This document shows positions 1,518-51,166 of a stretch of DNA of 51,166 bases, piece by piece; the first letter of the stretch is position 1; every line of letters starts with the position of its first letter. The translations under genes were made by a program, and so were the position numbers. A model generated the notes under the pieces. The model was not told the DNA's origin and did not search any database. It saw only the letters and a list, made by a program, of their open reading frames with translations. The DNA comes from an uncultured Gemmatimonadota bacterium (lineage in GTDB: Bacteria > SM23-81). The stretch is taken from the NCBI GenBank assembly GCA_964584035.1, contig CAZOYL010000003.1, positions 1 to 51,166 of the forward strand, given 5' to 3'.

Positions 1518-1621
1518 TTTCCTATCCTCCGGTGAAGAGTGAATGACCTGCGATCTATTTCATTAATATTTTCATAGTCTTACAAAGAGTATCAGGATAC
1601 AGGATCATCCCGATAAGCGGA

Positions 1622-4600
1622 TCAGCGCATGACCACCACCTTTCCATAGGCCTCGGTCTGCTGACTTTCAGCCCGCGCGATGATCTTGTAGAGATAGACG
1701 CCGTTGGCAATCTGATCGCCGTCCTCATCATCCCCTCTCCAGGGACGGCTGAGGTTATATCCACCGGGTCTCTCCCCCTCCCGCAGCGTGCGGATGAGTC
1801 GTCCGGCCACGGTGTAAATCTTAATGGTCACTTCCGCCGGACGGCTGATCTCGTAAGTGAATTCGGTAGGCTCCGAGCGGGGATCGAAGGGATTGGGACA
1901 GTTGAGGACATTTCGCAGTACCAGCTGGTTTCCCTCCGAAATCTCGAGGTCCAGCAAGCTGGTGGAAAAATTATTGAAATTATCCCAGGCCTTTAAGACC
2001 ACCTGATGAGGACCCGGCAAGAGTTCCGACAGAGTATATTCCAGACGGCCGGTTCGATAGCTGCCGGAATCATATTGGAACCGGTCGGTCAGATTGATCT
2101 GCTGTTGCCCGTCATCGACCAGCAGAACGATCCAGTGTCCCACCTCTCCGGTGATATTGATGCCGTTCTCATCCTCCAGCTGCGCCTCAATGCCAGGATT
2201 GGCGGAAGTGAAATCTCCGGATCCGAACGACTGTCCGGCGATGGTCAGAGTAATAACGGGCCCCGTCGTATCGGCCACGGCTGTGGCCGTGCCGCCGACG
2301 GACAGGGAGTCCCGGTAGGCCAGGCCGTCGCGTACTCCATCGCTGCCATAGGCGCTGATATGCGCTTGATGCCCGCCGTAACTGATGTCTTTGGGCACCA
2401 CGAAGGTGGCTTCAAAACGTCCCCGGTTTACGGGACAGCTGCCCCGAAAGATGGAGGTCCCGGGGAGCAGGTAATTGACCGTGGCCCCGGCCTCGGTGGT
2501 GTAAGACGTCGGCCTGGCCGAGTCGAACACCTGGAGAAAGACCGATCCTGAGAAAGAGGAATCCGGCTGTCCCCCGGACAGCAGTTCTCCCTCCAGGCTA
2601 AAATGATCCAGCGCTCTGAGCGAATCGCTGGAAAGATTCATCAGACGTCCCTCCAGACGTGGACGGCCCAGTTTCATGCATGGATCCCCGAACAGAGCGT
2701 ACTTTTGATCATTGCTATAGGAGGTGGGCCGGTTCATTTTAGCCCCGAACAGCGCCTGCCCCAGGGTGAGCTCTTCCTCGCCGAGAGCCAGGCGAAGGGT
2801 CTCCTTGTTCAGCTCGGCGTTGGGTGTGGCGAAACAGGAACGTGTCGCCCCGATAGTGGCCACGGCGCCCCGATCTCTGGCCCGGAGAAATTCCTCCGAC
2901 ATGGACTCGTTAAGCGTGTGGTCGAAGCGCCCCACGTCGCAGGAGGCCGAGTAGACCAGCGGCAGCCGGCGCCCATTGGACAGCCGGGGGATATCATTGG
3001 AGCCCCGAAAAGCATCCTCATGGGCCCAGACATCGAAATTTCCGTGCCCGATCCAATTGATCCACAGCATACCCTGGTTGAAACCATCGATAACGGCCTG
3101 CTGGGCCTGTGGTTTCTTAAGCGACCAGTCCATCGGGTATTCCATCAGGTAGACCTTGTGTTGATCGTAGGATGGGGGTATATAGTGGAGCGCCAGATCC
3201 TCGCTGTCACGGGTGTGAAACAGTTCGTTACCCTCGCCGCTGGCGGCCGTCTCATCATCGGATACGATCATCACCCGGTTGCGCCATGGTCCCAGGAGAG
3301 GATCCTGGACATAATCGAGGATCTTTCCGACCATGATATCGGCCTCCGCCGCCGAACGGACGGGCAGGCGCCCGATCATCAGATCGGCCGCATAATCGCC
3401 GTCCAGGCGCACGAACCAGTCTTCGGTGCAGAGATCGCCGTTTTCAAAAGGCGGCACCCAGTTGCTCCCGCCGGCGCCCGAATTATTCTTATAATCGAAG
3501 TTCCCATCACCAAATAGCAAAACGTATGCCGGGATCGGCCCGGCACCTGAATTATACAAGTACCAGAGATAATCGCGGATGGCGGTGGGATCGATCAGCC
3601 CCCAGGAGAACTGATCGTAGACATCCTCGATATCGGCGATCACCACCGTCAAACCCTCGTCCCGATGCAGCTGGGCCAGCGGCTCCAGGCTTTCCCGAAA
3701 AACCTCCGGCGTGATCATGATACAATCGCCCTGCTGCGTCCGAAGATCTTCCGGGATGCGCCGTTCGATCGAAATCGGGCTCACCAGGACGTTTTCACCA
3801 GCCGCATAATAGGATCTGGTTTGACCATCGTCGACGATGTCCTGAAAACGGAGGGTGATCTCGTCGCCCGCGATCACATTCTCGCCTCCGACGATCTCCG
3901 CCGGATTCCAGGGATCGGTGATGTCCAGCAATCGCACAGCCGGCTGAGTAAATCCCTCCAGGTCGAACTGTATGGTCCCGGAGGCCTGAGGGCTGTTGAA
4001 AGCCAAGCGGTTCTCCCAGGTCCGATACCCCCGCCAGTATTCGATCTCGAACCAATCGAACAGGATGTGATCCCATTCCGATTCGGCCCGAGGCAATGTG
4101 ATCTTGAGGACATTATCTCCTTCCCGCAGACCGGCGATCTGCTCCTCGGCAGTAATGACCAGGGCGCCATACCAGAAGCGCTCGATGGCCGGATCGGCGC
4201 TTTCGTTGAGATAGATATAAACATGGTGCGGGATGGAGGAAGGGACCGTCGCCCGCGGTGGATAATAGATGCCCTTGACCCGCAACTTCAGTTGACATTC
4301 CTGACTCTCGATATCGTGCAACGTGAAGCGATGTTCCTCGGTCTCGGCGTAATGACCCGCCATGCCATCCCAATACCAGGTCAGGCCGGAATAATCGGAG
4401 TTGAGAAAATCTTCTTCCAGGTGTGCCAAAGTGCGAAATTGCCGGGCCGGAATATAGGACGCCGATTGCGGAGCTCCCGAACGGCTGGTCCATCTGAGAC
4501 CGGCACCACCGCCGTAGGTCAGCCAGTAAACGTTGAGATCCGTAAAGGGATTGGTGTATTCGGCAATGCCCGCCTGAGACATCTCCTCCCATCCGTCCAG

Positions 4601-5632
4601 ATCTGTGGCATAGAAGAAAATTTCATCTTCCGCGTCGAAAAAACCATCATCGCCATCAGAGACCCGGATGGGTATCTGCTCCATGATCGGAGGATCGCCC
4701 ACCTGGCGCGGCAGCACTTTCCGGCCCATGTGATAGATCTTGATAGTCGCCGGAGTCACCTGCGACAGTTCGAGGCCGGCCTGACTCATCTGCTCGCCGG
4801 TCAGACGGCAGATCCCGGCCTGGCGAAGCGCAATGCGAAACCAGTCGTCCGAGGTGGCGAAGGGATCATCCTGTTTCGTAAATGACTTGGCCTGTGGAGG
4901 CGTCCGACGCCAGCGGCGTGATTGTTCCGCATTCACCAGGGCAGCGCGATAGATCGGCTCAAAGGGATCATTTCGAGGCGGCGATGGCTGCGCCTCATCG
5001 CTGGCCGTAAAAGAGACGGCGATGACGACGCGATGATGAACGCGAAGCGTGCCACTGACCGGATTCCACTGCGCCGGCAAGATTTCCAGCGGCAGAACCC
5101 TCTGATGCCGGAGGAAAACCGCCCCTTCGGACCGGCAAATGTTCCCCGGAAAGAGGGCATCTTTTTCGTATATGTCCGGATCGGGCCGGTAGATTTCCCG
5201 ATACAGAGACGATTCGTCCGCCCCCTCGCGAACGAGCTGCGGACCGGGTGCCAGCCGGATGCTTTCCTGATCCGAGTATTCGTCCTCCAGCAGGGAGAAG
5301 GTCACCGGGCCCTCCGGAGGCAATCCGATGCTGACCGCCTTGACCGGCAGCAGGGGCGCCCCCTCCTGGATATTGCTGCCACATCCGGGAATCGTGATAC
5401 GCTGGTAGCCCGGCTCTCCCTTCACCGCCGGCACGGGCGAGATGGACACCTCGGTAGTCTGAAACTCGATGACCAGGCCGCCCGGGGTTGATTCGAGCAA
5501 CCGCACGGTGATCGCTGAGGCCGCTCCCGGCGGCACTGCCAGCAGCACTACAACAGCCGCCAGCAGCGAGATGCCGAATCCGGAATGGCTTCGTGCCGTC
5601 CGAATAAGAAAAAAGCCGAGTGACAGGGACAT
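1622..5632 (-). CDS. porU: Peptidase C25 (gingipain-like) with C-terminal T9SS sorting domain; probable T9SS sortase PorU
   Basis: Catalytic-type motifs WINWIGHGNFDVW (His) and VYSASCDVGRFD (Cys). The C-terminus …NGVYLYKIIARAESQQTEAYGKVVVMR looks like a T9SS CTD / FlgD-Ig-like domain. Adjacent to porV. I place the start at ATG 5632 (MSLSLGFFLIRT… signal peptide, RBS AAGGGGG 6 nt upstream) rather than at the track ORF start 5815. Confidence 0.7.
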   Translation of the reverse strand: MSLSLGFFLIRTARSHSGFGISLLAAVVVLLAVPPGAASAITVRLLESTPGGLVIEFQTTEVSISPVPAVKGEPGYQRITIPGCGSNIQEGAPLLPVKAVSIGLPPEGPVTFSLLEDEYSDQESIRLAPGPQLVREGADESSLYREIYRPDPDIYEKDALFPGNICRSEGAVFLRHQRVLPLEILPAQWNPVSGTLRVHHRVVIAVSFTASDEAQPSPPRNDPFEPIYRAALVNAEQSRRWRRTPPQAKSFTKQDDPFATSDDWFRIALRQAGICRLTGEQMSQAGLELSQVTPATIKIYHMGRKVLPRQVGDPPIMEQIPIRVSDGDDGFFDAEDEIFFYATDLDGWEEMSQAGIAEYTNPFTDLNVYWLTYGGGAGLRWTSRSGAPQSASYIPARQFRTLAHLEEDFLNSDYSGLTWYWDGMAGHYAETEEHRFTLHDIESQECQLKLRVKGIYYPPRATVPSSIPHHVYIYLNESADPAIERFWYGALVITAEEQIAGLREGDNVLKITLPRAESEWDHILFDWFEIEYWRGYRTWENRLAFNSPQASGTIQFDLEGFTQPAVRLLDITDPWNPAEIVGGENVIAGDEITLRFQDIVDDGQTRSYYAAGENVLVSPISIERRIPEDLRTQQGDCIMITPEVFRESLEPLAQLHRDEGLTVVIADIEDVYDQFSWGLIDPTAIRDYLWYLYNSGAGPIPAYVLLFGDGNFDYKNNSGAGGSNWVPPFENGDLCTEDWFVRLDGDYAADLMIGRLPVRSAAEADIMVGKILDYVQDPLLGPWRNRVMIVSDDETAASGEGNELFHTRDSEDLALHYIPPSYDQHKVYLMEYPMDWSLKKPQAQQAVIDGFNQGMLWINWIGHGNFDVWAHEDAFRGSNDIPRLSNGRRLPLVYSASCDVGRFDHTLNESMSEEFLRARDRGAVATIGATRSCFATPNAELNKETLRLALGEEELTLGQALFGAKMNRPTSYSNDQKYALFGDPCMKLGRPRLEGRLMNLSSDSLRALDHFSLEGELLSGGQPDSSFSGSVFLQVFDSARPTSYTTEAGATVNYLLPGTSIFRGSCPVNRGRFEATFVVPKDISYGGHQAHISAYGSDGVRDGLAYRDSLSVGGTATAVADTTGPVITLTIAGQSFGSGDFTSANPGIEAQLEDENGINITGEVGHWIVLLVDDGQQQINLTDRFQYDSGSYRTGRLEYTLSELLPGPHQVVLKAWDNFNNFSTSLLDLEISEGNQLVLRNVLNCPNPFDPRSEPTEFTYEISRPAEVTIKIYTVAGRLIRTLREGERPGGYNLSRPWRGDDEDGDQIANGVYLYKIIARAESQQTEAYGKVVVMR

Positions 5633-5889
5633 CCATACCCCCTTTGCCAACCCGGCAAGATGATCGATCGAGATGTTGATTGGATTGCTCGCTAAAGGGA
5701 CTCTTGTGTTTTCCAGGATGATATCTACTGGATATCGGCGATCTACGGGGAATATCCATTGCCCCGATACAACACTACCCGACCTGACAGTCCGCAACCG
5801 GGACGAAGCCCGCAAGAACCCTTTAGCAAATGAATGCCTCTATAAACCCCCTTCTGAAGAGACGCAATCACGACCTCTCTTGTTTTTAG

Positions 5890-12580: not shown

Positions 12581-13720
12581 CTATTTCCTGAGAAACGTGG
12601 GAATGGATAAATCGTTGGGATCGACGCTCAGCGCTCCCGACGTATCCTCAACCGCCGCTCTCTGTTCCCGCCGCAGAAAGGCCGGGCGTTCCAGCCGGGA
12701 TAATTTGGGATTCAAGAAATCCACCACCCGGGCTTCCGGCTGTTTGGGGCTGGGACGAAGCTTGTTGTTCAGCCCGGTGGCAATGACCGTGACCCGGATT
12801 TCATCCTCGTTGCGCTCATCGATGACGGCCCCGAAGATAACATTGGCATCCTGACCGGCGGCCTCGTAAATCACCGAAACGGCTTCGTTGACCTCATAGA
12901 GCGACAGATCCTTGCCTCCGGTGATGTTAACCAGCAATCCCTGGGCTCCGGTAATAGAAATCTCTTCCAGCAGCGGGCTGGAAATAGCCGTCTGAGCGGC
13001 TTCCCGGGCGCGAGCCTCACCGCTGGCTGCGCCGGTGCCCATCAGGGCGTCACCCATCTCGGACATGATCGTCTTGACATCGGCAAAATCCAGATTGATC
13101 AGTCCGGGAATGATGACCAGGTCGGAAATACCCCGGGTGGCATGCAACAGGACCTCATCGGCCATACGGAAGGCATCCAGCAGCGGAGTGGTCTTTTCGA
13201 CGATGTCCAGCAGCCGCTGGTTGGGGATGACGATCAGCGTATCCACTCGATCCTTGAGCGCACGAAGGCCTTCTTCAGCCTGGTTCATGCGCTTACGACC
13301 CTCAAACTCGAAAGGTTTGGTGACCACGGCCACGGTCAGAGCGCCCTGTTCCTTGGCGATCTCGGCGATCACGGGAGAGGCGCCCGTGCCGGTGCCCCCA
13401 CCCATCCCGGCGGTAATGAAGACCATATCCGCTCCGGTCAGGGCGGCCACCATGAGCTCCCGATCCTCCTCGATGGCCCGTCGACCGATCTCAGGATTGG
13501 CGCCGGCGCCCAAACCCTGAGTGATGCCGCTGCCGATCTGGACCTTCTGCTGAGCCAGGCTTCTCTCCAGTGTCTGCGCATCGGTATTGGTGGCCACGAA
13601 TTCCACGCCGACCAGGTTCGCCGAGATCATACGATCGATGGCATTGCCACCGGCTCCCCCGACGCCCACGACCTTCATGATCGCGCCGCGGCCGAACTCC
13701 TTGTCCAATTCGAAGGTCAT
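12581..13720 (-). CDS. ftsZ: Cell division GTPase FtsZ
   Basis: GVGGAGGNA and GGGTGTGA tubulin signature motifs, and C-terminal peptide [10 protein letters not shown]. Start at ATG 13720 behind AAGGAGGGAG; the track extension to 13831 is rejected. Confidence 0.95.
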
Positions 13721-13809
13721 TACTCCCTCCTTTGGGAAAAAAGAAAAGTGGATTGGTTGGTACTTCAGAAGACTTCGCTGTACTATTTTCCCCTGTGCCG
13801 ACAGACCTT

Positions 13810-15045
13810 TCAGAAGAATTCTCCGAACCATTTTTTCATTCGATCAAATATCCGCTCGAACATGTTGGCCTCGGTCAGGCGGCCCAGACCATTCTCTCCC
13901 GAATTCTGCAGAGCGTATATAATCAGACCGATGCCGGTGGCATGTTTGGGGCTCTGCGCCAAATCGACCAGACCCCCGAAACCCGCCGGAACCCCCAGCT
14001 TGACCGGCATATCGAAGATCTGCTCGGCCAGCTCGATAACCCCTGGCAGCAGGGACGCGCCGCCGGTCAAAACCACACCCGCTGCCATCAGGTCGGCATA
14101 GTCGGTCCGCCGGATCTCTCTGAGAGCCAGGCTGAGCAGCTCCTCCATGCGAGGCTGAATAATGGACGCCAGCAGCGCCCGCGGCACCTGCCGCTCCTGC
14201 CGGCCGCCGATCCCGGGAACGGCGATGAACTCATCATCCTGCGTCAGTGAAACCAGCGCGGATCCCTGTTCCAGCTTGATCTTCTCCGCCTGAGCCAGAG
14301 AGGTTCTCATCCCGATGGCAATATCGCTGGTGACATTATTCCCACCCAGGCCGATCACCGCCGTGTGACGTATGCTGCCCTCATAAAACACCGCGATATC
14401 GGTGGTTCCCCCTCCAATGTCGAGTAGCGCCACGCCCAGCTCTTTCTCCTCCGGAGAGAGCACCGCATAGCTGGAGGCCAGCGGCTCCAGGACCAGGTCT
14501 TGAACGTTCAGACCGCTCTTCTGGATGCTCTTATAGAGATTCTGGGCCGATGTGACGGCACCGGTCACGATGTGTACCTCGGCCTCCAGACGGACGCCGG
14601 CCATGCCGACGGGATCCTTGATGCCCGACTGATCATCCACGATATATTCCTGGGGCAGGACGTGAATGATTTCCCGGTCCATAGGAATGGACACCGCCTT
14701 GGCGGCATCGACCACCCGGCCGATATCGCTTTTCCCGATCTCGTGATTGGCGCCGGAGACGGCGATGACCCCGCGGCTATTAATGCTGCGGATATGATCT
14801 CCGGCAATGCCCGCCAATACCGAATGCACCTCCATTCCGGCCATGAGTTCCGCCTCGTCGACCGCTTTGGAAATGGACTGGACCGTTTTTTCCAAATTGA
14901 CGACGACGCCGCGACGCAATCCTTCCGACGGACTGGTGCCCACGCCGACCACCTTGGGGCCCCCGTTCCCGTCGATCTCCGCAATGATGGCACCGATCTT
15001 GGTCGTTCCGATATCCAGACCTACCACGATAGTACTGTTTGCCAT
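13810..15045 (-). CDS. ftsA: Cell division protein FtsA
   Basis: Actin-like ATPase motifs [10 protein letters not shown] and [10 protein letters not shown]-terminal amphipathic helix …[15 protein letters not shown] 15045 preferred; GTG 15054 is possible. Confidence 0.93.
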
Positions 15046-42053: not shown

Positions 42054-42449
42054 CTATCCCTCCTCTTCGACGGTCTCGAGTTCACTCTCTTTGTCGGAAA
42101 TTCCCGATCTATCAAGAAATTGGATTCTGGCCGCTTGAACCTCTACCACATGGTGAGTCTGTCCTTCCTGACTTTCCCAGGAGCGGCTTCGTAAACGTCC
42201 CTCCACCAGGAGGGGACTTCCTTTATGGAGAAACTCGCCGCAGAGGTCGGCCCAGCGACGCCAGGCCACTACGGTTACAAAGGTCTCCTCTTGTTGCCAG
42301 TCTCCGTTGCTGTCTCGATACGGAAGGTTGACGGCTATTCGAGCATTACAGACCGACAGACCGTCCTTAATCTGTTTCACCTCGGGGTCCCGGGTCATTC
42401 GACCGATGAGGATTACATGGTTGAGATGAGGCAGTCTGAGCTTGGCCAT
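42054..42449 (-). CDS. ssb: Single-stranded DNA-binding protein (OB fold) with a short atypical C-terminal tail
   Basis: LNHVILIGRMTRDPEVKQ…FVTVVAWRRWADLCGEFLHKGSPLLVEGRLRSRSWE OB-fold core. Start at ATG 42449 behind AAAGGAGAT. The tail ends …ELETVEEEG with no Gly/Pro-rich linker and no D-D-(I/L)-P-F tip. Confidence 0.85.
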   Translation of the reverse strand: MAKLRLPHLNHVILIGRMTRDPEVKQIKDGLSVCNARIAVNLPYRDSNGDWQQEETFVTVVAWRRWADLCGEFLHKGSPLLVEGRLRSRSWESQEGQTHHVVEVQAARIQFLDRSGISDKESELETVEEEG

Positions 42450-42520
42450 TGGATCTCCTTTCCCGGTTATAGAATAAAAAAGGCTTGTTGTCATTGAACT
42501 CACAATCTATCTCTGAAGGA

Positions 42521-42536
42521 GGCAAGGACCATGCCA
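42521..42536 (-). promoter_or_regulatory. Candidate sigma-54 promoter (-24 TGGCAT / -12 TTGCC) upstream of ssb
   Basis: The minus strand reads TGGCATggtccTTGCC with canonical GG-to-GC spacing. It has the same -24 and -12 hexamers/pentamers as the site at 48550..48566 and lies about 70 nt upstream of the ssb ATG. Confidence 0.5.
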
Positions 42537-42542
42537 GAGCGA

Positions 42543-42577
42543 ATAAAGCCATTCACGGAAACCGTAAATGGCTTTAT
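42543..42577. repeat. 35-bp near-perfect palindrome abutting the ssb sigma-54 promoter
   Basis: atAAAGCCATTcACGGaaaCCGTaAATGGCTTTat: 16-bp arms with one mismatch around a 3-nt centre. Confidence 0.6.
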
Positions 42578-42750
42578 AACAACGTATTATTTCTCTAAAC
42601 CGGGTGTTTCCGAAAACAGCTTTAAAGAAAAATCATCGGATATTATGAGTACTTAATACACAATTATTCGATCGTCCTCCGAAATATAACGCCAGTGCAT
42701 GGTGGCGAGGACGCTATCGTTCCGGATATTTGGGTATTAAATACTCAATA

Positions 42751-44163
42751 TCATCCTCTTTTCTTGCCTTGTCTGACTCGTCTATCGAGTCCATATCGCA
42801 GTATTTTCTTATCCAGACCTTTACGACTTAATCCCAAGGCAGTAGCTGTTCTGCTCTTGTTCCAGTTGTTTGCTTTCAACGCCTCCAAGATGAGATCCCG
42901 CTCAAGCCCAGCCACTTTCGATTTTAGCGGGCTGCTCTCTTCAAGGCTGCTATATCGCTGTATATGATCTGCGTCATGAATCTCTCGGGAAACATACTCG
43001 ATGGTAATATTCGAGCCGCTACCCACGAAGGTGACCATCTTTTTAATCTCATTCTCCAACTGGCGGACATTCCCGGGCCAAGAGTAATTGACCAATAAAC
43101 TCATGACATCTTCCTCAATTCTACCTACCTGTTTGCCGACCTTGCTGCTGTAGGATTGGAGAAAATGATCGGCCAGTAGAGGAATATCTTCATTCCTCTC
43201 CCGCAGTGGGGGCAGTTTTATATGGATGACGTTCAATCTATAGTACAGATCATCGCGGAAACGCCCCCTCTTGACCTCCTCCTTCAGATCTTTATTGGTC
43301 GCCGAGATGACTCTCACATCTACCTTGCGATATCGAATCTCACCGACCCGTTTAATCTCTCCCTCCTGAAGAACTCTCAGCAACTTGGCCTGGGTGCTGG
43401 CATTGATATTACAGATCTCATCGAGAAAAATCGTTCCGCCATTTGCCGCCTCGAACAAACCGGTTTTGTCGCGGGTGGCACCCGTGAAAGCGCCCTTCTG
43501 ATGTCCGAAGAGCTCACTTTCAATGAGATTTTCAGGAAGCGCGCCGCAATCGACGGCAACAAATTTCTGGTCCTTTTTCCATCCATTGAAGTGAATCGCT
43601 CTGGCCACCAGCTCCTTCCCAGTTCCACTTTCCCCCTCCAGAAGCACTGGAGCCGGGCTTGCCAGTACATCTTTAATTATGCGGTAGACTTCCTGCATTT
43701 TATCACTTCTACCGATAATCTTATCGAAGCAGTATTGATTTTCAACCTGTCTTTGCAAATAAACATTTTTCTGCTGCAGGAGTTTTCTTTCAAGGGCACG
43801 ATTGACAGCAATCAGTATTTCATCGATGCTGATGGGTTTGACAAGATAATCATAAGCCCCTTCACGAATGGCTTCGATAGCCGTCTCCAAAGATTCATAG
43901 GCGGTCATCATGATCACGGCGATATCCTTATTCACCTCTTTGATCTGCCGCAGCACCTCAATGCCGTTCTTACCTGGAAGACGTATATCAAGCATGATGA
44001 CATGGTAATATTCCGGATCCTTGGCGACTCTATCAACGGCCTTTAGACCATCAGCCAGGAGATCAACCTGAAAACCTTGTTCACTGAGAACTTTCTTCAG
44101 AAGTTGACGCATATTGACTTCATCATCAACAACCAAAAGATGTCTGTCGCCTTCCTCAGTCAT
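42751..44163 (-). CDS. Sigma-54-dependent response regulator (NtrC family: REC + AAA+ + Fis-type HTH)
   Basis: REC domain (LLVVDDE…MLDIRLPG), GESGTGKE Walker [22 protein letters not shown] Walker [11 protein letters not shown], and C-terminal HTH …[26 protein letters not shown] 44163 overlaps the kinase stop by 8 nt. Confidence 0.9.
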
Positions 44164-45637
44164 CACTGGCAGCCACTCCTTTCCTGCTTTCGACAAAGGG
44201 GAGCAAGACCGTTATTGTCGTCCCATTGCCGATCTGGCTTTCGACTTCAATCCGGCCGCCATGCTCCTCGATAATCCGATGGCTTATGTAAAGACCCAAC
44301 CCTCTTCCACCACTTTCAGCCCTGGTCGTAAAAAAGGGCATGAATAATTGTTGGAGATGTTCCCTGGAAATACCACAACCGGTATCATCAAATCGCACGG
44401 CGATATATCGTTTCCCGCTTTCCCCAACCCATATGCGGGATAGGAAATTTCGATCTCTTCCGGAAGGGTCCCGAATCATCAAGGTCGATATCTTAAGGTG
44501 TCCTCCTTGAGGCATTGCTTGAAAAGCATTCAAAATGATATTCACGAAAACTTGTTCTAACTGTTTCAGATCTCCCATAATTTTTTGATCTTCATTATTT
44601 TCCTCGAGGACAACGTCCACATTTTTCGATCTGCTTTCATATTTAAGCAATGATATAGCATTCTTAATAATTTTTTGAAGATAGAGAATTTCAATCTGCG
44701 CTCTCGGTTTGGAAAAATCTAGGTATTCTCTGATGGTCGATTTGCATCGTCCTGCCTCTTTGTTGATGATCTCAACACCTTCCCGCATGGGATCATCTTT
44801 GGGGACCTTTCTCAACAGATAATCGCTGTAGCCCAAGATGACGCTCATAGGATTATCGATCTCGTGAGAAATACCTGCGGCCATCTGACCCACCGCAGCA
44901 AGTCTTTCAGAGCGTATCAACTGGTCCTGCATCTTTTTAAGATCCATATACTGGCCGTAGGCTTTTCTGATAAGCAAAACCGGGAGGAGAAGGAGAAGAA
45001 TGGCCCATTTACCCAAGGCAAAATTAACCATCACCATCAGATAACCGATGGCCGACAGGACCACCAGATAAGGAATGGTCCAGGAATGATTCTTCAACCA
45101 AATTGCTTTTGGAGAAATACCTTCGCTGAGGCCAATGGCAATACTAAGAAGACCGCTGTTTAAAAGAAAATAGACCGCAACCGTGAGGATAAAAACGAGG
45201 ATAAATTGGGGAGCTTCTATGAAATTGATCGTATCGGCCAGGCTGTGAAAAATCCACGAGGATACGCCCATGGTCAGCATGAATAGGGCGATATTGAAAA
45301 GAATTTTATACAGCGGAGCGCGACGGAGCACTAGCGATGAAGACAATGCACCAAGCACTCCGTATAACATAGCAATTGAAGGGCCAAAGAGCATTAATAT
45401 TGGAATGTCAACAGCCGTACCTATGGATAGGCAACCACGTAATGGTAATTGTATAACGAAAGCTTCAGAGATAATTACAGCAACTGCCCAAAAAATAATT
45501 TCTTTTGCATTAATACAGAGATATGTCGGTATGTTGAAAGAAAAGAAAAAGAAACCCGAAAATATAGCAGTCAATAGCCATATAAGAAATAGAAATGCTC
45601 GGCATTCTTTTGATAGATTTCCAAATTGCATTGGCAT
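44156..45637 (-). CDS. Sensor histidine kinase with polytopic N-terminal membrane domain
   Basis: About 230 aa of TM helices, then the HisKA H-box AAGISHEIDNPM and an HATPase_c domain (…NAFQAM…, DTGCGI, GGRGLGL). Confidence 0.88.
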   Translation of the reverse strand: MPMQFGNLSKECRAFLFLIWLLTAIFSGFFFFSFNIPTYLCINAKEIIFWAVAVIISEAFVIQLPLRGCLSIGTAVDIPILMLFGPSIAMLYGVLGALSSSLVLRRAPLYKILFNIALFMLTMGVSSWIFHSLADTINFIEAPQFILVFILTVAVYFLLNSGLLSIAIGLSEGISPKAIWLKNHSWTIPYLVVLSAIGYLMVMVNFALGKWAILLLLLPVLLIRKAYGQYMDLKKMQDQLIRSERLAAVGQMAAGISHEIDNPMSVILGYSDYLLRKVPKDDPMREGVEIINKEAGRCKSTIREYLDFSKPRAQIEILYLQKIIKNAISLLKYESRSKNVDVVLEENNEDQKIMGDLKQLEQVFVNIILNAFQAMPQGGHLKISTLMIRDPSGRDRNFLSRIWVGESGKRYIAVRFDDTGCGISREHLQQLFMPFFTTRAESGGRGLGLYISHRIIEEHGGRIEVESQIGNGTTITVLLPFVESRKGVAASDD

Positions 45638-45667
45638 TTCTTAATTATAGATTAGTACTGAGTCGAA

Positions 45668-46990
45668 TCATGCCTTATTATTAACTTTATGCTCTTCGAC
45701 TGATACTTCACCATTATTAATTAATTCAATGAATACTTTAACTATTTCTGGATCAAATTGTTTTCCTAATCCCTTATGCAATTCTTGGATAGCTACTTCA
45801 ATAGGTAACGCAGGCCTATATGGTCTATCCGAAGTCATTGCATCAAATGCATCAACTACTCCAAGTATTCTCGCTCCGACAGGAATCTCCTCTCCCTTAA
45901 TTCCATCGGGATAACCCAAACCATCATACCTCTCATGGTGATGACTGACATATCCTTCTGCTTTCTTCAGAAATTTTAATTTTCCGGCGATTTCGGCACC
46001 CATGTTGGGATGCTTTTGCATCTCGCGATATTCGCGATCGTTCAATCGACTTCTTTTCCGCAGAATGCTTCTATCAATACCTATTTTCCCGATATCGTGG
46101 AGGCGGCCCGCAAACTCAATCGATTCGATTTCCCGCTCACTCAATCCCATGGCTCGTGCGACCTTTTTTGCATATTCCGTCACCCTGTCCGAATGACCGC
46201 GCGTGTAGGGATCGCTGGCATCCAGGGCAGAAGCCAGGGCGGCTATGGAATCGAAATAGGCATCACGTAATTCCATGTACAACTTATATACATATCTTGC
46301 TAAAGCCAAAGGTGCAAAAATTGAAAATATCGCTAACCAACCATATCTGGTAAACAAAAGAGCTACAACTAAACCAAGAGGTGCTAAAATTAAATCATGG
46401 CTTACAGTCCATTTGAAATCGACATACCACACTCTAAGCGGTGAAATTTTCTCAGTCAATCCAATTATTGAACAAGTTAATGCATTGTTAACGAAAAAAT
46501 AAGTTGGGACACACGCTATGAACGGTAATATTATTTTAATATATGGAATATTTGCTGGTGAAATAGTCCTTAGAATAACGCCACCTAATAGTACATATAC
46601 AACAGCTGCAGAGCCGGCAGTAATAACATATTGACTAGAATTAAAAAGCAATTTGTAAAATGGTACTCTTCTAGCCAACCCTGAACTTACTAGCGCTTCT
46701 AAAAGACCAAACCATATTGCTAATTGAGGGCCATATAGAATAATAATAGCAAAGTCTAATGCTGCAGTTACAGTGACAAAAGCTCCTCCCCTTGGGGTAT
46801 TAATTACAAATTTCTCTGCAGCGACAACTAAGACAGCCCAAAGAAATATCTCCCACCATTTTCCTGGCCATTGCTTCTCTATCAATGGCTCAGAAAGATA
46901 AAAAAGCATAACAATTGCAACTGCTGAAACAACAGTTATAAATATCCACGAAGATATTGGTAGTGGTGATTTACGAAAAGATAATATCAT
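45668..46990 (-). CDS. HD-GYP domain c-di-GMP phosphodiesterase with polytopic N-terminal membrane domain
   Basis: HD-GYP motifs RGHSDRV, LHDIGK, HHERYDGLGYPDG and DAFDAMTSDRPYR. The N-terminal roughly 230 aa are membrane-embedded and homologous to the kinase N-terminus. Confidence 0.88.
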   Translation of the reverse strand: MILSFRKSPLPISSWIFITVVSAVAIVMLFYLSEPLIEKQWPGKWWEIFLWAVLVVAAEKFVINTPRGGAFVTVTAALDFAIIILYGPQLAIWFGLLEALVSSGLARRVPFYKLLFNSSQYVITAGSAAVVYVLLGGVILRTISPANIPYIKIILPFIACVPTYFFVNNALTCSIIGLTEKISPLRVWYVDFKWTVSHDLILAPLGLVVALLFTRYGWLAIFSIFAPLALARYVYKLYMELRDAYFDSIAALASALDASDPYTRGHSDRVTEYAKKVARAMGLSEREIESIEFAGRLHDIGKIGIDRSILRKRSRLNDREYREMQKHPNMGAEIAGKLKFLKKAEGYVSHHHERYDGLGYPDGIKGEEIPVGARILGVVDAFDAMTSDRPYRPALPIEVAIQELHKGLGKQFDPEIVKVFIELINNGEVSVEEHKVNNKA

Positions 46991-47061
46991 CTTTCTTTCG
47001 ATTCTGTATATTTAAGTATAAATGGATGTTATAAAAAAGACCGACATCTTTTACCATTTCA

Positions 47062-47130
47062 TTACCAGCCGCCCTTGGCAGCCAGACTCTCAACAACAGT
47101 CGCCAAGAAGACAATGATCGAAAACAACAT
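47062..47130 (-). CDS. Candidate 22-aa hydrophobic small protein
   Basis: Too short for the ORF track. ATG 47130 is preceded by GAAGGGGGG 9 nt upstream. Translation is MLFSIIVFLATVVESLAAKGGW*. It lies 71 nt upstream of the HD-GYP start. Confidence 0.35.
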   Translation of the reverse strand: MLFSIIVFLATVVESLAAKGGW

Positions 47131-47350
47131 CAGTACCAACCCCCCTTCTTTGTAAGCTTTGATTTGGTACAAGTCAAAGCTCGCTCCGCTCGGGTTGATA
47201 CCGCTTCGCTTCGGTAAAAGCAGATGCCGGTCTTTTTATGTCATATTTTCTTTTCTTGACTTGGAGACCGCGCCGACTGATCTTTCGCCAAGATCAGTTT
47301 TCCAATCAGGTCGGTCTCTCCTGAGTCAATAACCCTCCTCTGGAATCGGA

Positions 47351-47379
47351 AAAATAGGCCGTTAAGCCCTTTTTGTCAA
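47351..47379 (-). promoter_or_regulatory. Candidate sigma-70 promoter TTGACA-17-TATTTT for the small ORF / HD-GYP / kinase / regulator unit
   Basis: The minus strand reads TTGACAaaaagggcttaacggccTATTTT, followed by a roughly 210-nt hairpin-rich leader. Confidence 0.45.
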
Positions 47380-47482
47380 CACTTTTCTCAAATAACAGCT
47401 ATAACATTTTTAATAACAGTTTGTTAAGAGAGGCAAAATGTTGGCATTTTTGCCATGTCTCAGACACAATTTTGACTTTGGA

Positions 47483-48211
47483 CTAATTGAGATAGATATT
47501 CTCAACCAGGGTTCCCTTGGCCAGCATAACCCCCTGTTCGACAATATTACGTAATTCTCTCACGTTCCCAGGCCAATCATGCATGAGGAATTGGGTCCGT
47601 GCTTCCTGAGAAAAACCCCTTATCAATTTTCCATATTTCACTTTAAATTCTTGAAGGAAAAGATCCGCAAGTGGCAAGATCTCCTCTCTCCGCTCCCTCA
47701 GGGGTGGAATCTCGATATGAATAACATCCAAACGATAGGCCAACCTTTGTTGCAATTTTCCATTAGCTTCCAGATTCGTATCTGCCGCGTAGGCACATAT
47801 CAGCCTTGGCCTAGCGTTGCACTCTGAATTGCCTAAAAGGCTTAAAAAATGTTGCTCCTCTAATAACTCCAGAAGTTGCAACTGATGCTTCAGATCAACT
47901 TCCTCCAGGGATTTCAAAAATACGGTCATTGGAGCATCCACTGCATGTTCACAAACACTCTGCTGAAAAAGTTCCCTGATCTTAGGAAAATCCATCTCTG
48001 TATCGTGACAGTGATACACTCGAAAATTTCTCTCCTCCGGATCCCGTAAACGATGAATCTTTCGTGCCAAGTGTTCCTTACCAACTCCGTTCTCACCCAC
48101 GATAAGCACATTCGCGTTTACGGTGCTGGCTCGTTCAGCCAATCTGTAGATACCAACCATCCCCGATCTCGAACAGGCAACATTCAGAGCGATATTATAC
48201 ACTCTGCTCAA
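47483..48211 (-). CDS. Stand-alone degenerate sigma-54-activator-like AAA+ domain protein (no REC, GAFTGA, Walker B DE or HTH seen)
   Basis: GENGVGKE Walker A, PPLRERREEILPLADLFL and WPGNVRELRN are retained. Where the neighbour has GAFTGA…IFLDEI, this protein reads ELFQQSVCEHAVDAPMTVFLKSLEEV. It ends 21 aa after sensor II. The start is uncertain (TTG 48211 or GTG 48202). It could be a decaying gene remnant. Confidence 0.7.
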   Translation of the reverse strand: MSRVYNIALNVACSRSGMVGIYRLAERASTVNANVLIVGENGVGKEHLARKIHRLRDPEERNFRVYHCHDTEMDFPKIRELFQQSVCEHAVDAPMTVFLKSLEEVDLKHQLQLLELLEEQHFLSLLGNSECNARPRLICAYAADTNLEANGKLQQRLAYRLDVIHIEIPPLRERREEILPLADLFLQEFKVKYGKLIRGFSQEARTQFLMHDWPGNVRELRNIVEQGVMLAKGTLVENIYLN

Positions 48212-48241
48212 CTCCCATTTCAGCTATATGGAGCGACAAAC

Positions 48242-48493
48242 TCAGAGAAGCCCGCCAAGCACGATGATGGCCAGCTCGATATTGGATAACGTGAGAGCTG
48301 CCTGAGCGCCTGGTTGAGAATCCGCTGGCGCTCCAATGTGAACTTTTTGATCATTTGCACCAACAGGTTCCGGATCACCCATGGGACCGGCCCAAAGAAT
48401 CGAATTCCACAACAGGAAGAGAACGAGGCTCAACAGTAATACCGGCTTCAGATATTTCCCGCATCCGTTCTGTCCAGAAATCGCTTCCACCAT
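48242..48493 (-). CDS. Small (83 aa) predicted membrane protein
   Basis: Start at ATG 48493 behind AAAGGGGGTG. Hydrophobic segment PVLLLSLVLFLLWNSILWA and hydrophobic C-terminus IELAIIVLGGLL. It is the first gene behind a sigma-54 promoter. No family recognised. Confidence 0.5.
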   Translation of the reverse strand: MVEAISGQNGCGKYLKPVLLLSLVLFLLWNSILWAGPMGDPEPVGANDQKVHIGAPADSQPGAQAALTLSNIELAIIVLGGLL

Positions 48494-48549
48494 CTTGAGC
48501 ACCCCCTTTCGCGTTACAGGCTGAGTTTCCATCGGTGCTCATTAGTATT

Positions 48550-48566
48550 GGCAAATACTATGCCAA
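48550..48566 (-). promoter_or_regulatory. Sigma-54 promoter (-24 TTGGCAT / -12 TTGCC)
   Basis: The minus strand reads TTGGCATagtatTTGCC with canonical spacing. It follows a terminator directly and lies about 55 nt upstream of ATG 48493. Confidence 0.6.
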
Positions 48567-48571
48567 GGGAT

Positions 48572-48603
48572 AAAAAAACCGTTAGGTAAAACCTAACGGT
48601 TTG
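48572..48603 (-). terminator. Rho-independent terminator
   Basis: The minus strand reads CCGTTAGGTtttACCTAACGG followed by TTTTTTT: a 9-bp perfect stem and 3-nt loop. Confidence 0.75.
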
Positions 48604-48912
48604 ATAAATAAATAGTTATAATATTTAATGCTCTTCGTGCCGGTGAGCCTCAGAAAAAAAGTGGGGCATTTCACCACCGATATCTGCGAAATGACCCACC
48701 TATAAAAAACAGAATTCCTGTGATATCTCTTTAACTGTACAATACACAGTATATTAGATATTCGCTGCTTTTACCGACTCTAAACGCCAAGACATTCTCA
48801 AATCCAACATAATAGTTTATATTACAATAAGTTAGAAAGTCGCAGATTTTAAAATTCTGTCCAGTCTTTCCGCCTTGTGGTCCAATAGAACTGTGATATC
48901 AGATCGATCACC

Positions 48913-49524
48913 TCATGCCCGCCCGATCTCCTCCCAGTTATCCAAATCGATATCTTCTGTATCAGAAGGCTTGAGCCTCCCCAGTTTACGGTCCAGCCAC
49001 CACATCGGAAGATCAATATTGAAGTAGACTTCGATAATCTTTCCGGTGTGGGGATGAAGACACTCAAACACATCATATTGATGATCATCATGTTCTCGCA
49101 GGGATTGCATGATCGATTCAAGACTCAGCACTCTCAGGAGAGCAAATTCCTCCTGTGTGGAAATAACCACGAAAGCGTTTTCGAATTTCGTACCGTCCCC
49201 GGAACGCATGATGGAATCGAGAAGACCTGTGGCAAACTTCATATGAAACGCTTCTTTATTTTCCGCTTGAAGATTTTCATACACATCGACAGCCAGCATA
49301 TGAGCATGAATATCCAGATAACAGGCTTGAAGAAGACGTTTCAAGGCATTCAGGGCGGAAGAGAAGTTTTTTACATCCATCGCCTGACGGAGGATGCTGT
49401 GAGCCTCTGAGTCGAACCGAAAGGGATCATAATCCGGAGACTGCGCATAAGCCATACGCAAAACGGTATAATCGATCTTGTCCGGATCTCTTTTGGTGTT
49501 TTCTAATAGTTGCTGATAGGTCAT
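48913..49524 (-). CDS. Hypothetical cytoplasmic protein
   Basis: 203-aa ORF with no signal peptide. The segment IDYTVLRMAYAQSPDYDPF reminds me of DUF4919-type proteins, but this is unverified. Confidence 0.5.
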   Translation of the reverse strand: MTYQQLLENTKRDPDKIDYTVLRMAYAQSPDYDPFRFDSEAHSILRQAMDVKNFSSALNALKRLLQACYLDIHAHMLAVDVYENLQAENKEAFHMKFATGLLDSIMRSGDGTKFENAFVVISTQEEFALLRVLSLESIMQSLREHDDHQYDVFECLHPHTGKIIEVYFNIDLPMWWLDRKLGRLKPSDTEDIDLDNWEEIGRA

Positions 49525-49571
49525 AATGAGTACTTCATTTCATAGAGTATCCCTGATCGTAATATTTTAGA

Positions 49572-50189
49572 CTATTCTTCATCCCGTGCTTTGTTCCTCT
49601 CATCTTGAATCTGTTGAACACGATGATGGCATTTCCGGATCAGATGACTCCATTCCTTGGGCTCCTGTTTCCAAAATCCACCACCCCAGCTCGAAGCATG
49701 AAGATACCATTCATCCGAAATCGCGAAATATCGGCAGAAGACATAGTGGACGATCACTTGATCATCATCTGCCGGAAAAACATCATCTCCAGCCGTTGAG
49801 AATATGGCCGCCTCAACGCGCAAACCATCAACCTCAGGCGCTAATCTGATAATCTCTTTAGCGGTCTTTTCCCACCGGTAGATCATCACCTCGTCGGCAG
49901 CCAAGCCTGTTTCTTCCCGATACTTTTCTGACAACCAATCGATGAAATCGGCCTGTGTTGGCATCCGATCCGAGCAGGTCGTCACCATAAAGATCAACAA
50001 ACATAAGAAGATGCCAATCCACGGGTGTAGTCGTGTCGAATCGATCTTCTGACAATGATCCGGTCCATCCCCACAGGTATCCACTGGGGACATGACATTC
50101 TGTATGCCACTTGCCGATGTGCTTTCAGCCGTCACTTTCATAGTATCACAAACGTTTTCTCTTGTCAAGAAATATGTTACTTTCATCAA
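49572..50189 (-). CDS. Hypothetical protein with one N-terminal hydrophobic segment (possible signal anchor or lipoprotein)
   Basis: 205-aa ORF. WIGIFLCLLIFMVTTCSD could be a signal peptide with a weak lipobox. The start codon is ambiguous (50189, 50141 or 50093). No family recognised. Confidence 0.45.
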   Translation of the reverse strand: MMKVTYFLTRENVCDTMKVTAESTSASGIQNVMSPVDTCGDGPDHCQKIDSTRLHPWIGIFLCLLIFMVTTCSDRMPTQADFIDWLSEKYREETGLAADEVMIYRWEKTAKEIIRLAPEVDGLRVEAAIFSTAGDDVFPADDDQVIVHYVFCRYFAISDEWYLHASSWGGGFWKQEPKEWSHLIRKCHHRVQQIQDERNKARDEE

Positions 50190-50228
50190 GAATTTCTATC
50201 TCATGTACGCTGGATACTGATACCAATA

Positions 50229-50244
50229 CACAATATACGTGCCA
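50229..50244 (-). promoter_or_regulatory. Weaker candidate sigma-54 promoter (TGGCACG-N4-TTGT)
   Basis: The minus strand reads TGGCACGtataTTGTG. The -24 element is perfect and the spacing correct, but the -12 is GT instead of GC. It lies about 40 nt upstream of the first ATG of ORF 49572..50189. Confidence 0.3.
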
Positions 50245-50298
50245 ATGCCATGAATAACCGCGCGGTCTCTGCTCTTGTCAGCTTCTCAACTATCAGGA

Positions 50299-50976
50299 TC
50301 ATCTCACCCTGGTCAGATAATCTGCGGCCTGTTTAATATGCTGACTGTTGGAAACCAGAAAGACGGTATCTCCTTCTTGAAGAATATTGGCTCCCCTTGG
50401 AATCTGGAAGGTCTCCTTGTCCTCATCATAGTTTCCGACGAAGACGCATTGCTCAGGAAAACCTTTGCTCTGGGCAATATCTTTTACCGACATACCGATA
50501 GCCCTTGCCTCTCTCGGGATCTTCACGGCATAGATATCAGCTTTGCCCCCGCCAAGCGTTACGATTTTACGAATCCTGGGCTGCTCAATCTCCATCATCA
50601 GCTCATTCACCAGCAGATCGGCCATCTTTATGATCGAAGTAACCCCTGCCAATTTATAAGCTTCTTCATATGGCGGATTTCTTAACCGAGCCAGCACCCG
50701 AGGAACGCCCAGACTTCTTGCCACCAGCGCAGAGGCGATGTTATCGGCGGGATTATGCATCAGACAGACCAATACATCGGCTCTCGCGGCGCCGGCTCGC
50801 TCCTGAACGTGAATATCAGTGGCGTCGCCATTGATCGTCAATGCTCCGGTTTCCGTATAGACGGTTTCGCACACTTCCGGATCTTTATCAACGGCCACAA
50901 CATCATGCTTATTTTCCACCAACATTTTAATGATCTCTTGGCCGATGATTCCTGCGCCGGCTATAATCACATACAT
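50299..50976 (-). CDS. trkA: Trk/Ktr potassium uptake system NAD-binding subunit (RCK N+C domains)
   Basis: MYVIIAGAGIIGQEI Rossmann N-terminus and a C-terminal TrkA-C-like segment (…ILQEGDTVFLV…). Confidence 0.85.
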   Translation of the reverse strand: MYVIIAGAGIIGQEIIKMLVENKHDVVAVDKDPEVCETVYTETGALTINGDATDIHVQERAGAARADVLVCLMHNPADNIASALVARSLGVPRVLARLRNPPYEEAYKLAGVTSIIKMADLLVNELMMEIEQPRIRKIVTLGGGKADIYAVKIPREARAIGMSVKDIAQSKGFPEQCVFVGNYDEDKETFQIPRGANILQEGDTVFLVSNSQHIKQAADYLTRVR

Positions 50977-51001: not shown

Positions 51002-51166
51002 TCAACTTTTCCAGGCTTTTCTGCTAAATAATAGCAAAACCGGCAGGATCTCTAATCGCCCAGCCAGCATCCCAAATATGTAGACTATTTTAATACCGGG
51101 ATGGAGTGATCCCATCTCAGCAACGGGAATGTAGCAGGGACCGATGTTGCCCAATGCGCTGAACAT
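51002..51166 (-). CDS. trkH: TrkH/KtrB-family potassium transporter, C-terminal 54 codons (partial, runs off the window)
   Basis: My reverse-strand translation …FSALGNIGPCYIPVAEMGSLHPGIKIVYIFGMLAGRLEILPVLLLFSRKAWKS* matches the usual TrkH C-terminus (GRLEI…). It lies directly upstream of trkA. Confidence 0.7.
   Translation of the reverse strand: MFSALGNIGPCYIPVAEMGSLHPGIKIVYIFGMLAGRLEILPVLLLFSRKAWKS

Follow-up and report, generated by a model that had tools for sequence, protein, structure and literature searches.

Two-component systems of the NtrB/NtrC type, such as AtoS/AtoC and ZraS/ZraR, pair a HisKA/HATPase kinase with a regulator that joins a receiver (REC) domain to an AAA+ domain bearing the GAFTGA motif and to an HTH_8 domain, and they work with a dyad enhancer upstream of a -24/-12 promoter. 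MASE9 was introduced as a domain for intramembrane sensing in HD-GYP and GGDEF-EAL proteins, with TM1467 of T. maritima and HdgA of S. venezuelae as MASE9-HD-GYP proteins (Galperin and Chou, bioRxiv 10.1101/2021.11.05.467447). The DNA analysed here, a stretch of 51,166 nucleotides of contig CAZOYL010000003.1 from an uncultured Gemmatimonadota bacterium (the window), resembles both. It encodes, in a segment of low GC content, a histidine kinase (HK) and an NtrC-family regulator with the layout of the former, and an HD-GYP protein that, like the latter, joins a complete HD-GYP domain directly to an integral-membrane N-terminus whose membrane core contains charged residues. Next to them lies a gene for a stand-alone, degenerate relative of sigma-54 activators, which we call the pseudo-activator.

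We propose that this part of the window is a regulatory neighbourhood inherited vertically in a rare uncultured lineage of the FCB group, and that its genes form a signalling circuit; we place middling confidence in this overall model, whose architecture is much firmer than its dynamics. Sequence signals and their conservation in related loci delimit four predicted minus-strand transcription units (Table 1). In the first, a sigma-70-type promoter precedes a lipoprotein-like gene and a DUF4919 gene. In the second, an enhancer-like dyad and a sigma-54 promoter precede the genes for a small, putatively exported protein with the motif GPMGDPEP and for the pseudo-activator. The third leads from a sigma-70-type promoter through a 355-nt leader into the HD-GYP, HK and NtrC genes, and the fourth places a second sigma-54-type promoter before ssb.

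Table 1. Genes and predicted signals in the low-GC part of the window and at its borders
Feature	Position	Strand	Remarks
ssb, 131-aa SSB OB-fold protein	42054..42449	-	Pfam SSB 5.4e-31; passes TIGR00621 cut-off; GC3 0.58
Predicted sigma-54-type promoter upstream of ssb	42521..42536	-	TGGCAT-N5-TTGC; strict motif match
Predicted terminator hairpin ending the HD-GYP/HK/NtrC operon	42545..42575	-	8 nt upstream of ssb promoter
NtrC-family response regulator, 470 aa	42751..44163	-	Pfam REC, AAA+ with GAFTGA, HTH_8
Histidine kinase with MASE9-like multi-pass membrane N-terminus	44156..45637	-	HisKA and HATPase_c
HD-GYP protein with MASE9-like membrane N-terminus	45668..46990	-	HD_5 7e-42
Structured leader element, 205 nt	47033..47237	-	Alignments, fold, pairing statistics
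22-codon open reading frame within leader (MLFSIIVFLATVVESLAAKGGW)	47062..47130	-	Frame and length conserved
Predicted sigma-70-type promoter, leader/HD-GYP/HK/NtrC unit	47351..47379	-	TTGACA-17-TATTTT; conserved
Pseudo-activator, stand-alone AAA+ of sigma-54-activator type, 239 aa	47483..48202	-	Pfam Sigma54_activat and AAA_lid_14
Small putative exported/membrane protein, 83 aa	48242..48493	-	Signal-peptide-like N-terminus, then invariant GPMGDPEP
Predicted sigma-54 promoter, small-protein/pseudo-activator operon	48550..48565	-	TGGCAT-N5-TTGC; same place in window and 12 related loci
Predicted terminator hairpin, 12-bp stem and T-run	48576..48602	-	10 nt upstream of -24 element; position conserved in aligned relatives except L093
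Enhancer-like dyad GTGGGKCATTTCRC-N11-GYGAAATGMCCCAC	48662..48698	.	~100-150 bp upstream of 48550 promoter
DUF4919 protein	48913..49524	-	Pfam 1.6e-16; close relatives only
Lipoprotein-like conserved protein, 190 aa	49572..50141	-	Orthologs in 10 loci, 47-79% identity
Predicted sigma-70-type promoter, lipoprotein-like/DUF4919 unit	50140..50168	-	TTGACA-17-TACTAT, extended -10; conserved
Rejected sigma-54 candidate	50229..50244	-	TGGCAC-N5-TTGT
TrkA	50299..50976	-	Pfam; GC3 0.53; transition back towards background GC
TrkH, 3' end	51002-51166	-	Follows TrkA

The base composition changes where these genes lie. In sliding 1-kb windows the GC content was 0.50-0.63 over 1-42 kb versus 0.385-0.472 over 42.5-50.5 kb. 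It declines gradually, from ~0.60 to 0.53, across 27-42 kb and drops sharply only after that, at a left edge of ~42.45 kb where 300-nt windows pass from 0.51 (42,250-42,549) to 0.41 (42,400-42,699), in the intergenic region that separates ssb from the NtrC stop codon. The lowest 300-nt values (0.33) were found at 45.4-45.85 kb and 46.3-46.75 kb and overlap in part with the membrane-domain coding parts, to which the initial annotation of this DNA, correct in its gene list, had assigned the minimum. The right border that it had drawn at 50.3 kb corresponds to no visible edge, as TrkA and the last 200 bases still have a GC content of 0.45-0.54 up to the window end at 51,166. At third codon positions (GC3) the flanking genes (n = 31) reach 0.58-0.75; the low-GC genes from NtrC through TrkA have, in order, 0.51, 0.44, 0.30, 0.46, 0.51, 0.49, 0.52 and 0.53 (NtrC 0.51, HK 0.44, HD-GYP lowest at 0.30, TrkA 0.53), and in them the first and second positions (GC1 and GC2) are reduced as well. 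In tetranucleotide z-scores, 42.5-50.3 kb correlated at 0.52 with the remainder of the window, versus 0.65-0.79 for 14 equally long background windows. Sliding-window GC, GC3 and the tetranucleotide signature thus bear out the GC break that had been claimed, and the break is a real shift at synonymous sites.

The break had been read as the mark of a low-GC island. A recent genomic island from a low-GC donor would account for the deviant GC, GC3 and tetranucleotide signature and for the sharp left edge, but we regard this explanation as very improbable on several grounds. First, the absence of tRNA genes, mobility genes and meaningful repeats from the borders was confirmed: no tRNA gene was found in the window, a Pfam scan of all window open reading frames (ORFs) revealed no integrase or transposase, and the only border repeats were 14-16-nt matches at chance level. 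Second, related contigs (cited by locus number below) repeat the entire arrangement with both flanks and the GC trough; they were drawn from independent JGI, ENA, NCBI and Logan assemblies via relatives of the short AAA+ protein and of the kinase. On those of sufficient length, a giant Pkinase/AAA_16/TPR/GAF/Sigma54_activat/HTH_8 protein (the giant regulator) is followed in order by TrkH, TrkA, an unknown protein, optionally DUF4919, the small protein, the short AAA+ protein, HD-GYP, HK, NtrC, SSB, optionally HMG-CoA reductase, then apgM, Lnt and a Reg_prop protein. Synteny covers the block together with both flanks in L002/L003 (two samples), L093 and L094, and all partial loci are consistent with this order, so that presence is not patchy. 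Exact look-ups with the window's own TrkA and HD-GYP proteins matched nothing, and relatives stand in for the right flank. Third, the relatives that share block and flanks range from 89% MurC identity with the window down to ~60% HK identity, and in each relative examined the GC trough is located identically. The best named matches of MurC, at ~66% identity, are in Candidatus Edwardsbacteria, Kryptonia and Calditrichaeota. The HD-GYP, HK, NtrC, short AAA+ and small-protein genes thus recur elsewhere as a block co-conserved with both flanks.

The other explanation put forward for the break was a chimeric metagenomic assembly in which two organisms had been joined at ~42.5 kb. The break does coincide with an intergenic region, and many related contigs terminate within the low-GC part. 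However, four independent assemblies of relatives, from different samples and pipelines (JGI 3300034152, JGI 3300035158, ENA ERZ27275859 and JGI 3300028840), show the same NtrC-to-ssb and TrkA-to-downstream junctions, and we consider the chance of a chimera to be negligible.

On this evidence we infer that low GC content has long characterised this locus, reaching its extreme and its greatest stability in the HD-GYP gene, and does not mark a recent transfer. Between the window and L003 the trough proteins are 58-88% identical and the flank proteins 80-82%, and these comparable identities indicate ordinary purifying selection on the trough proteins. In four lineages the GC3 of HD-GYP is 0.27-0.32, and that of their flanks 0.54-0.68. 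Low expression as a sufficient cause of low GC3 was rejected on the basis that the GC3 of the giant regulator is at background level.

A transfer may also have occurred long ago, into the common ancestor of the clade, with the block still ameliorating. This would concern the origin of the block only, its composition then reflecting history and not function, and would be compatible with the functional model; we consider it possible, although on the unlikely side. It would fit the joint reduction of GC1, GC2 and GC3, the four-fold sites, which are unsaturated between lineages (0.39-0.51 identical between window and L003 versus 0.25-0.28 expected at saturation), and the full-length HK and pseudo-activator families, which have no close relatives outside the clade. 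It would also fit the GC content at four-fold sites (GC4) of NtrC, HK and the pseudo-activator, which rose by 17-22 points with the higher background of the window lineage. By contrast, the GC4 of HD-GYP held steady (0.34 versus 0.32) while its neighbours shifted, and this constancy, like that of its GC3, points to a gene-specific constraint; moreover, no donor lineage is identifiable.

As observations on the assemblies themselves, 9 of 13 related contigs (L001, L004, L085, L086, L087, L088, L089, L090 and L092) end in or just after the leader/HD-GYP/HK region, the part with the lowest GC content. This points to a drop in coverage or to strain microdiversity there, which would also account for the rarity of complete assemblies of the locus. 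In L094 an IS1595-family transposase (13277-14227) lies between NtrC and an ssb-like gene, exactly at the composition boundary.

The third unit supports the earlier assignment of HD-GYP, HK and NtrC to one operon, as a gap of 30 nt separates HD-GYP from HK and the HK and NtrC genes overlap by 8 nt. The HD-GYP motif set is complete (LHDIGK and HHHERYDGLGYPDG, representing HD and HHExxDGxGYP), and by this set the protein is a predicted phosphodiesterase of cyclic di-GMP (c-di-GMP). In NtrC, the GAFTGA motif, Walker B and the receiver Asp can be read in the sequence; its score against the NCBIfam model of AtoC is 477 bits (cut-off 714), and none of the low-GC block genes from NtrC through TrkA reaches an NCBIfam equivalog cut-off. 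Full-length relatives of HK form 16 clusters besides the window's own, after which scores drop sharply. Against Pfam PF20972 (MASE9, gathering cut-off 24.3 bits), HK scores 23.4 bits and HD-GYP 19.7 bits; among orthologous HD-GYPs, MASE9 is listed at E <= 1e-5 in the P0011 contig and in L094 and is weak in L003 and L093. The membrane domains of HK and HD-GYP are 35% identical over 196 residues (E=9e-34), which indicates that they are paralogous, and a shared membrane sensor domain fits one signal class feeding both outputs. To this extent the earlier idea that one membrane signal serves both outputs is sustained; the circuit logic attached to it stays conjectural.

In the second unit, the pseudo-activator represents a family of ~26 clusters (218-277 aa, 48-86% identity), beyond which scores fall from 206 to 143 bits, the level of ordinary activators. 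It starts at profile position 6 of the AAA+ domain and stops after the lid, with neither a receiver nor HTH_8, and aligns across the whole AAA+ domain of NtrC1, ZraR, LuxO, FlrC, FleQ, VpsR and PspF; its structural model (mean predicted local distance difference test score, pLDDT, 74) reaches template modelling (TM) scores of 0.60-0.67 to NtrC1, ZraR, PspF and VpsR. Walker A is kept, GE[NS]GVGKE being nearly invariant across the family. GAFTGA is absent, with a loop region that is 10 residues shorter and of unrelated sequence; Walker B is lost, with LFLDEIGE of NtrC1 aligning to a conserved FLKSLEE (K97 invariant, S98 nearly invariant); and one Arg finger is lost, FRxDLYYRL having become LQQRLAYRL. 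These losses of catalytic and sigma-54-contact motifs agree with the inactive state that the initial annotation had deemed probable for the protein. Its assignment as a paralog of NtrC itself is not supported, because the pseudo-activator is equally distant from both neighbouring activators (32-33% identity; E=7e-34 for the giant regulator versus 2e-27 for NtrC). A recent duplication of the adjacent NtrC gene was rejected on the same grounds, and the equal distance points to an old, separately conserved family. A scan of genome contigs with the pseudo-activator alignment (generic Walker A and WPGNVREL patterns) returned only ordinary activators of 29-38% identity, and of these 80 unrelated activator loci only one (L083) has an HD-GYP gene within 10 kb.

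The small protein with which the pseudo-activator is predicted to be co-transcribed starts at the ATG at 48493, behind a conserved ribosome-binding site. In an alignment of 11 orthologs GPMGDPEP is invariant, and the unit of hydrophobic segment and GPMGDPEP is duplicated in distant lineages; the protein has no Pfam or NCBIfam match. A PEP-CTERM/PrsK-PrsR system, considered for the PEP motif and TIGR02915 matches, was rejected, as scores are far under the cut-offs and the motif is N-terminal.

We predict two sigma-54 promoters in this region where three had been proposed. Matches to the strict motif TGGCAY-N5-TTGC number 2 in the window versus 0.26 expected, both intergenic and correctly oriented; a loose motif with two mismatches allowed is not enriched there (28 matches versus 19.7 expected). 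The promoters at 48550 and 42521 are conserved, the latter with its -24 and -12 elements kept in L003 and L093 and a variable spacer (three lineages). The candidate at 50229 was rejected, since TTGT replaces TTGC and the site is not conserved in L001, L003 and L085; a sigma-70-type promoter is found instead. That the degenerate AAA+ gene is driven by sigma-54 agrees with the conserved enhancer and promoter upstream of it. The signalling operon itself has a predicted promoter of the sigma-70 and not of the sigma-54 type, and the AAAAGTSTTGACA core of this promoter is present in the window and in 10 related loci. The dyad stands out as a conserved block amid diverged sequence in 9 aligned loci, occurs also in L092 and L094, is recognisable in all related loci but L093, and has a single copy in the window versus 0.01 expected. 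Upstream of the ssb promoter we found only tentative GTAC-core repeats (~42,640; 42,730-42,750), which recur in L003 and L093. One enhancer common to all promoters was rejected, as the dyad motif occurs once in the window, and the idea of one activator driving three island promoters is not supported, given the false promoter at 50229 and the lack of an enhancer motif common to the other two. The stem of the terminator at 42545..42575 shows compensatory changes in L093 (AAAGCCAT/ATGGCTTT to AGGGCCAT/ATGGCCCT).

Two further observations concern promoter layout. A terminator hairpin with T-run precedes each of the two conserved sigma-54 promoters at a fixed spacing of 8-10 nt, and this composite arrangement is itself conserved. 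In L092 (8317-8600) the lipoprotein-like gene is missing, yet the sigma-70-type promoter is retained directly before DUF4919.

The leader of the signalling operon extends over ~355 nt from the promoter to the HD-GYP start. Its 205-nt core is almost invariant across 11 lineages, in which the neighbouring proteins are only ~50-85% identical; it folds at -81 kcal/mol (z=-5.9), and 96% of cells in its helices are paired versus 38-54% with partners slid. P1 is a long-range helix of 15 bp, formed by an A-run plus GACCGGCAUC with GAUGUCGGUC plus a U-run. In the 12-bp helix P2 an upstream segment pairs with the Shine-Dalgarno sequence and start codon of an inner ORF, and variation consists solely of one-sided, G-U-compatible changes. 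P3 is a hairpin with the fully compensatory variants TTTGA/TCAAA, TGGTA/TACCA and TTGGT/ACCAA. The frame and the C-terminal [KR]G[GS]W of the inner ORF are kept in 12 loci, with 22 codons in 11 of them and 21 in one, and its variable columns are distributed 15/7/18 over codon positions 1/2/3, as is typical of coding sequence; its stop codon is followed after 9-14 nt by the 3' arm of P1. When 241 million metagenome records were scanned for exact matches to the leader core, only 3 contigs were returned. In Rfam 15 nothing matched the leader at gathering scores or at E<=1, and the sole match at E<=10 was on the wrong strand, on which basis a known RNA family was rejected. Translation of the 22-codon ORF would, we infer, modulate read-through or translation of the HD-GYP/HK/NtrC operon.

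The mRNAs of type I toxins encode a hydrophobic peptide and have a long-range 5'-3' helix and a sequestered Shine-Dalgarno sequence. The architecture of the 205-nt element, its hydrophobic 22-aa peptide and its extreme nucleotide conservation would suit an autonomous small gene of this sort, one that does not control HD-GYP. Several features make this improbable: the position between the pseudo-activator and HD-GYP genes is fixed in 12/12 loci, and only 43 nt, with no conserved promoter, separate the element from the HD-GYP start. An antisense partner of the leader ORF was not found; the only promoter-like site on the opposite strand (46957-46985) looks unconserved in L003 by reading, no systematic test having been made.

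In the circuit that we propose, the MASE9-like domains of HK and HD-GYP would read the same kind of intramembrane cue. HK would phosphorylate NtrC, which would then bind the dyad and fire the sigma-54 promoter at 48550, and in parallel HD-GYP would lower c-di-GMP. The pseudo-activator probably still binds ATP and joins AAA+ rings but would be incapable of ATP hydrolysis, sigma-54 contact and DNA binding. From its motif losses and kept Walker A, we propose that the pseudo-activator co-assembles with an active activator and damps it, which would give negative feedback.

Several points weigh against this scheme and against the reading of the locus on which it builds. The unsaturated four-fold sites mean that the shared trough could in part reflect simple common ancestry. 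A decoy role of the pseudo-activator would be an analogy only, and FleT-type partners are positive co-activators. The helix-turn-helix (HTH) domains of NtrC and of the giant regulator are equally conserved, and covariation of HTH and enhancer fails to single out the activator. In L093 the dyad is degenerate and displaced although the 48550-type promoter persists, and rpoN is absent from the window. In the leader, P1 and P2 are almost invariant and hence yield little covariation support, and as the U-run of P1 pairs with the A-run, P1 may be only a closing helix and no terminator.

The giant regulator is an equally good candidate activator as NtrC. This protein of 1,690-1,740 aa (L003 516-5600 and orthologs), which combines Ser/Thr-kinase, AAA_16, TPR, GAF, sigma-54-activator and HTH_8 domains, is encoded just beyond the right end of the window, outside the trough, and is a neighbour in every lineage that reaches that far; a conserved adjoining activator with its own HTH contradicts the self-contained circuit of the initial annotation. 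There is a real possibility that it, and not NtrC, uses the dyad at 48662-48698, in which case the pseudo-activator would modulate the giant regulator. Its activator domain is complete and accompanied by HTH_8, its gene keeps synteny with the small-protein/pseudo-activator pair in each locus reaching it, distant ones included, and it is the marginally better match to the pseudo-activator. Conversely, NtrC shows the same degree of co-conservation on all contigs of sufficient reach, and no covariation of motif and HTH separates the two candidates.

With either activator, the pseudo-activator might act not as a brake but as a positive partner, as in FleT/FleQ and HrpR/HrpS hetero-rings, or as a nucleotide or c-di-GMP sensor acting on activators. 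Walker A is conserved, and so is the Lys-Ser found in place of Walker B, which suggests that a function depending on a ligand has been retained; the c-di-GMP-binding activators VpsR and FleQ are among its structural neighbours, and its gene adjoins that of HD-GYP. Without GAFTGA, however, sigma-54 contacts would not be possible, and we consider such a role rather unlikely.

The proposed scheme also has a more far-reaching form, an undescribed three-part feedback circuit, which we regard as a long shot. In its first part, a secreted GPMGDPEP peptide would be made together with the dead activator copy under sigma-54 control. The MASE9-like pair of kinase and HD-GYP phosphodiesterase would sense this peptide, and the dead, sigma-54-blind copy would titrate the ring of the activator, perhaps depending on a nucleotide or on c-di-GMP. 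In its second part, a new class of translated riboregulator would gate the signalling operon, and in its third, selection would hold the HD-GYP gene at extreme AT content.

Among the neighbouring genes, the lipoprotein-like protein probably starts at the ATG at 50093, a Cys follows its hydrophobic segment, and it has no family match in Pfam or NCBIfam. SSB ends in ETVEEEG and lacks the usual acidic DDDIPF-type tail, and a conserved sigma-54-type promoter would be an unusual control for an SSB gene. Elsewhere in the window, type IX secretion genes at 552-5815 encode PorV and a 1,397-aa C25 peptidase with propeptide (PorU-like). After these genes come RecG, a radical SAM gene, the dcw cluster with FtsZ, and a cluster for glycan synthesis.

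Every component of this locus belongs to a known kind, and the differences lie in detail and in combination. Unlike AtoS/AtoC and ZraS/ZraR, the two-component system described here has a MASE9-like multi-pass sensor, reaches no NCBIfam equivalog (477 versus 714 bits for AtoC) and appears to be read from a sigma-70-type promoter via a long structured leader. Unlike TM1467 and HdgA, its HD-GYP protein scores just under the Pfam cut-off for MASE9, and a paralogous copy of the domain is found on the histidine kinase encoded by the next gene, a combination unlisted for MASE9 (bioRxiv 10.1101/2021.11.05.467447). The pseudo-activator shares the activator AAA+ fold, the loss of accessory domains and the expected action through mixed or regulated rings with FleT of R. 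sphaeroides (which lacks a DNA-binding domain), HrpR/HrpS, PspF and the GAFTGA-less VpsR, TyrR and HupR. To our knowledge each of these is without one feature only, whereas the pseudo-activator family, although conserved and predicted to be sigma-54-driven in its turn, has lost all of REC, HTH, GAFTGA, the Walker B acidic pair and one Arg finger. In its proposed role, the co-regulated restraint of an activator ring, it would resemble the anti-activators PspA (on PspF), HrpV (on HrpS) and FleN (on FleQ), but these have unrelated folds, and the candidate here is a dead version of the activator domain itself. The leader recalls leader-peptide attenuators and the type I toxin mRNAs hok, ibs and tisB in its short ORF within a structured RNA, its sequestered Shine-Dalgarno sequence and its long-range closing helix beside a U-run; it differs from them in having no Rfam family, no run of regulatory codons and a fixed position before a signalling operon.

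In the literature searched, the combination of these components does not appear to be described, and the same seems to hold for a family that jointly lacks REC, HTH, GAFTGA and Walker B, for the pair of a MASE9-like kinase and a MASE9-like HD-GYP protein, for the translated structured leader and for the persistent gene-specific AT-richness. A sharp compositional "island" may thus be an old, syntenic and selectively maintained part of a chromosome, which calls for caution in finding islands by GC content only. The stand-alone pseudo-activator family would offer a natural test of how dead subunits tune sigma-54 activator rings, and the leader, with the conserved micro-ORF inside it, is a candidate for a new cis-regulatory RNA. 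The MASE9-like sensor domain, predicted to be wired in parallel to a phosphorelay and to c-di-GMP hydrolysis, would be the first clear case of its kind in the literature searched.

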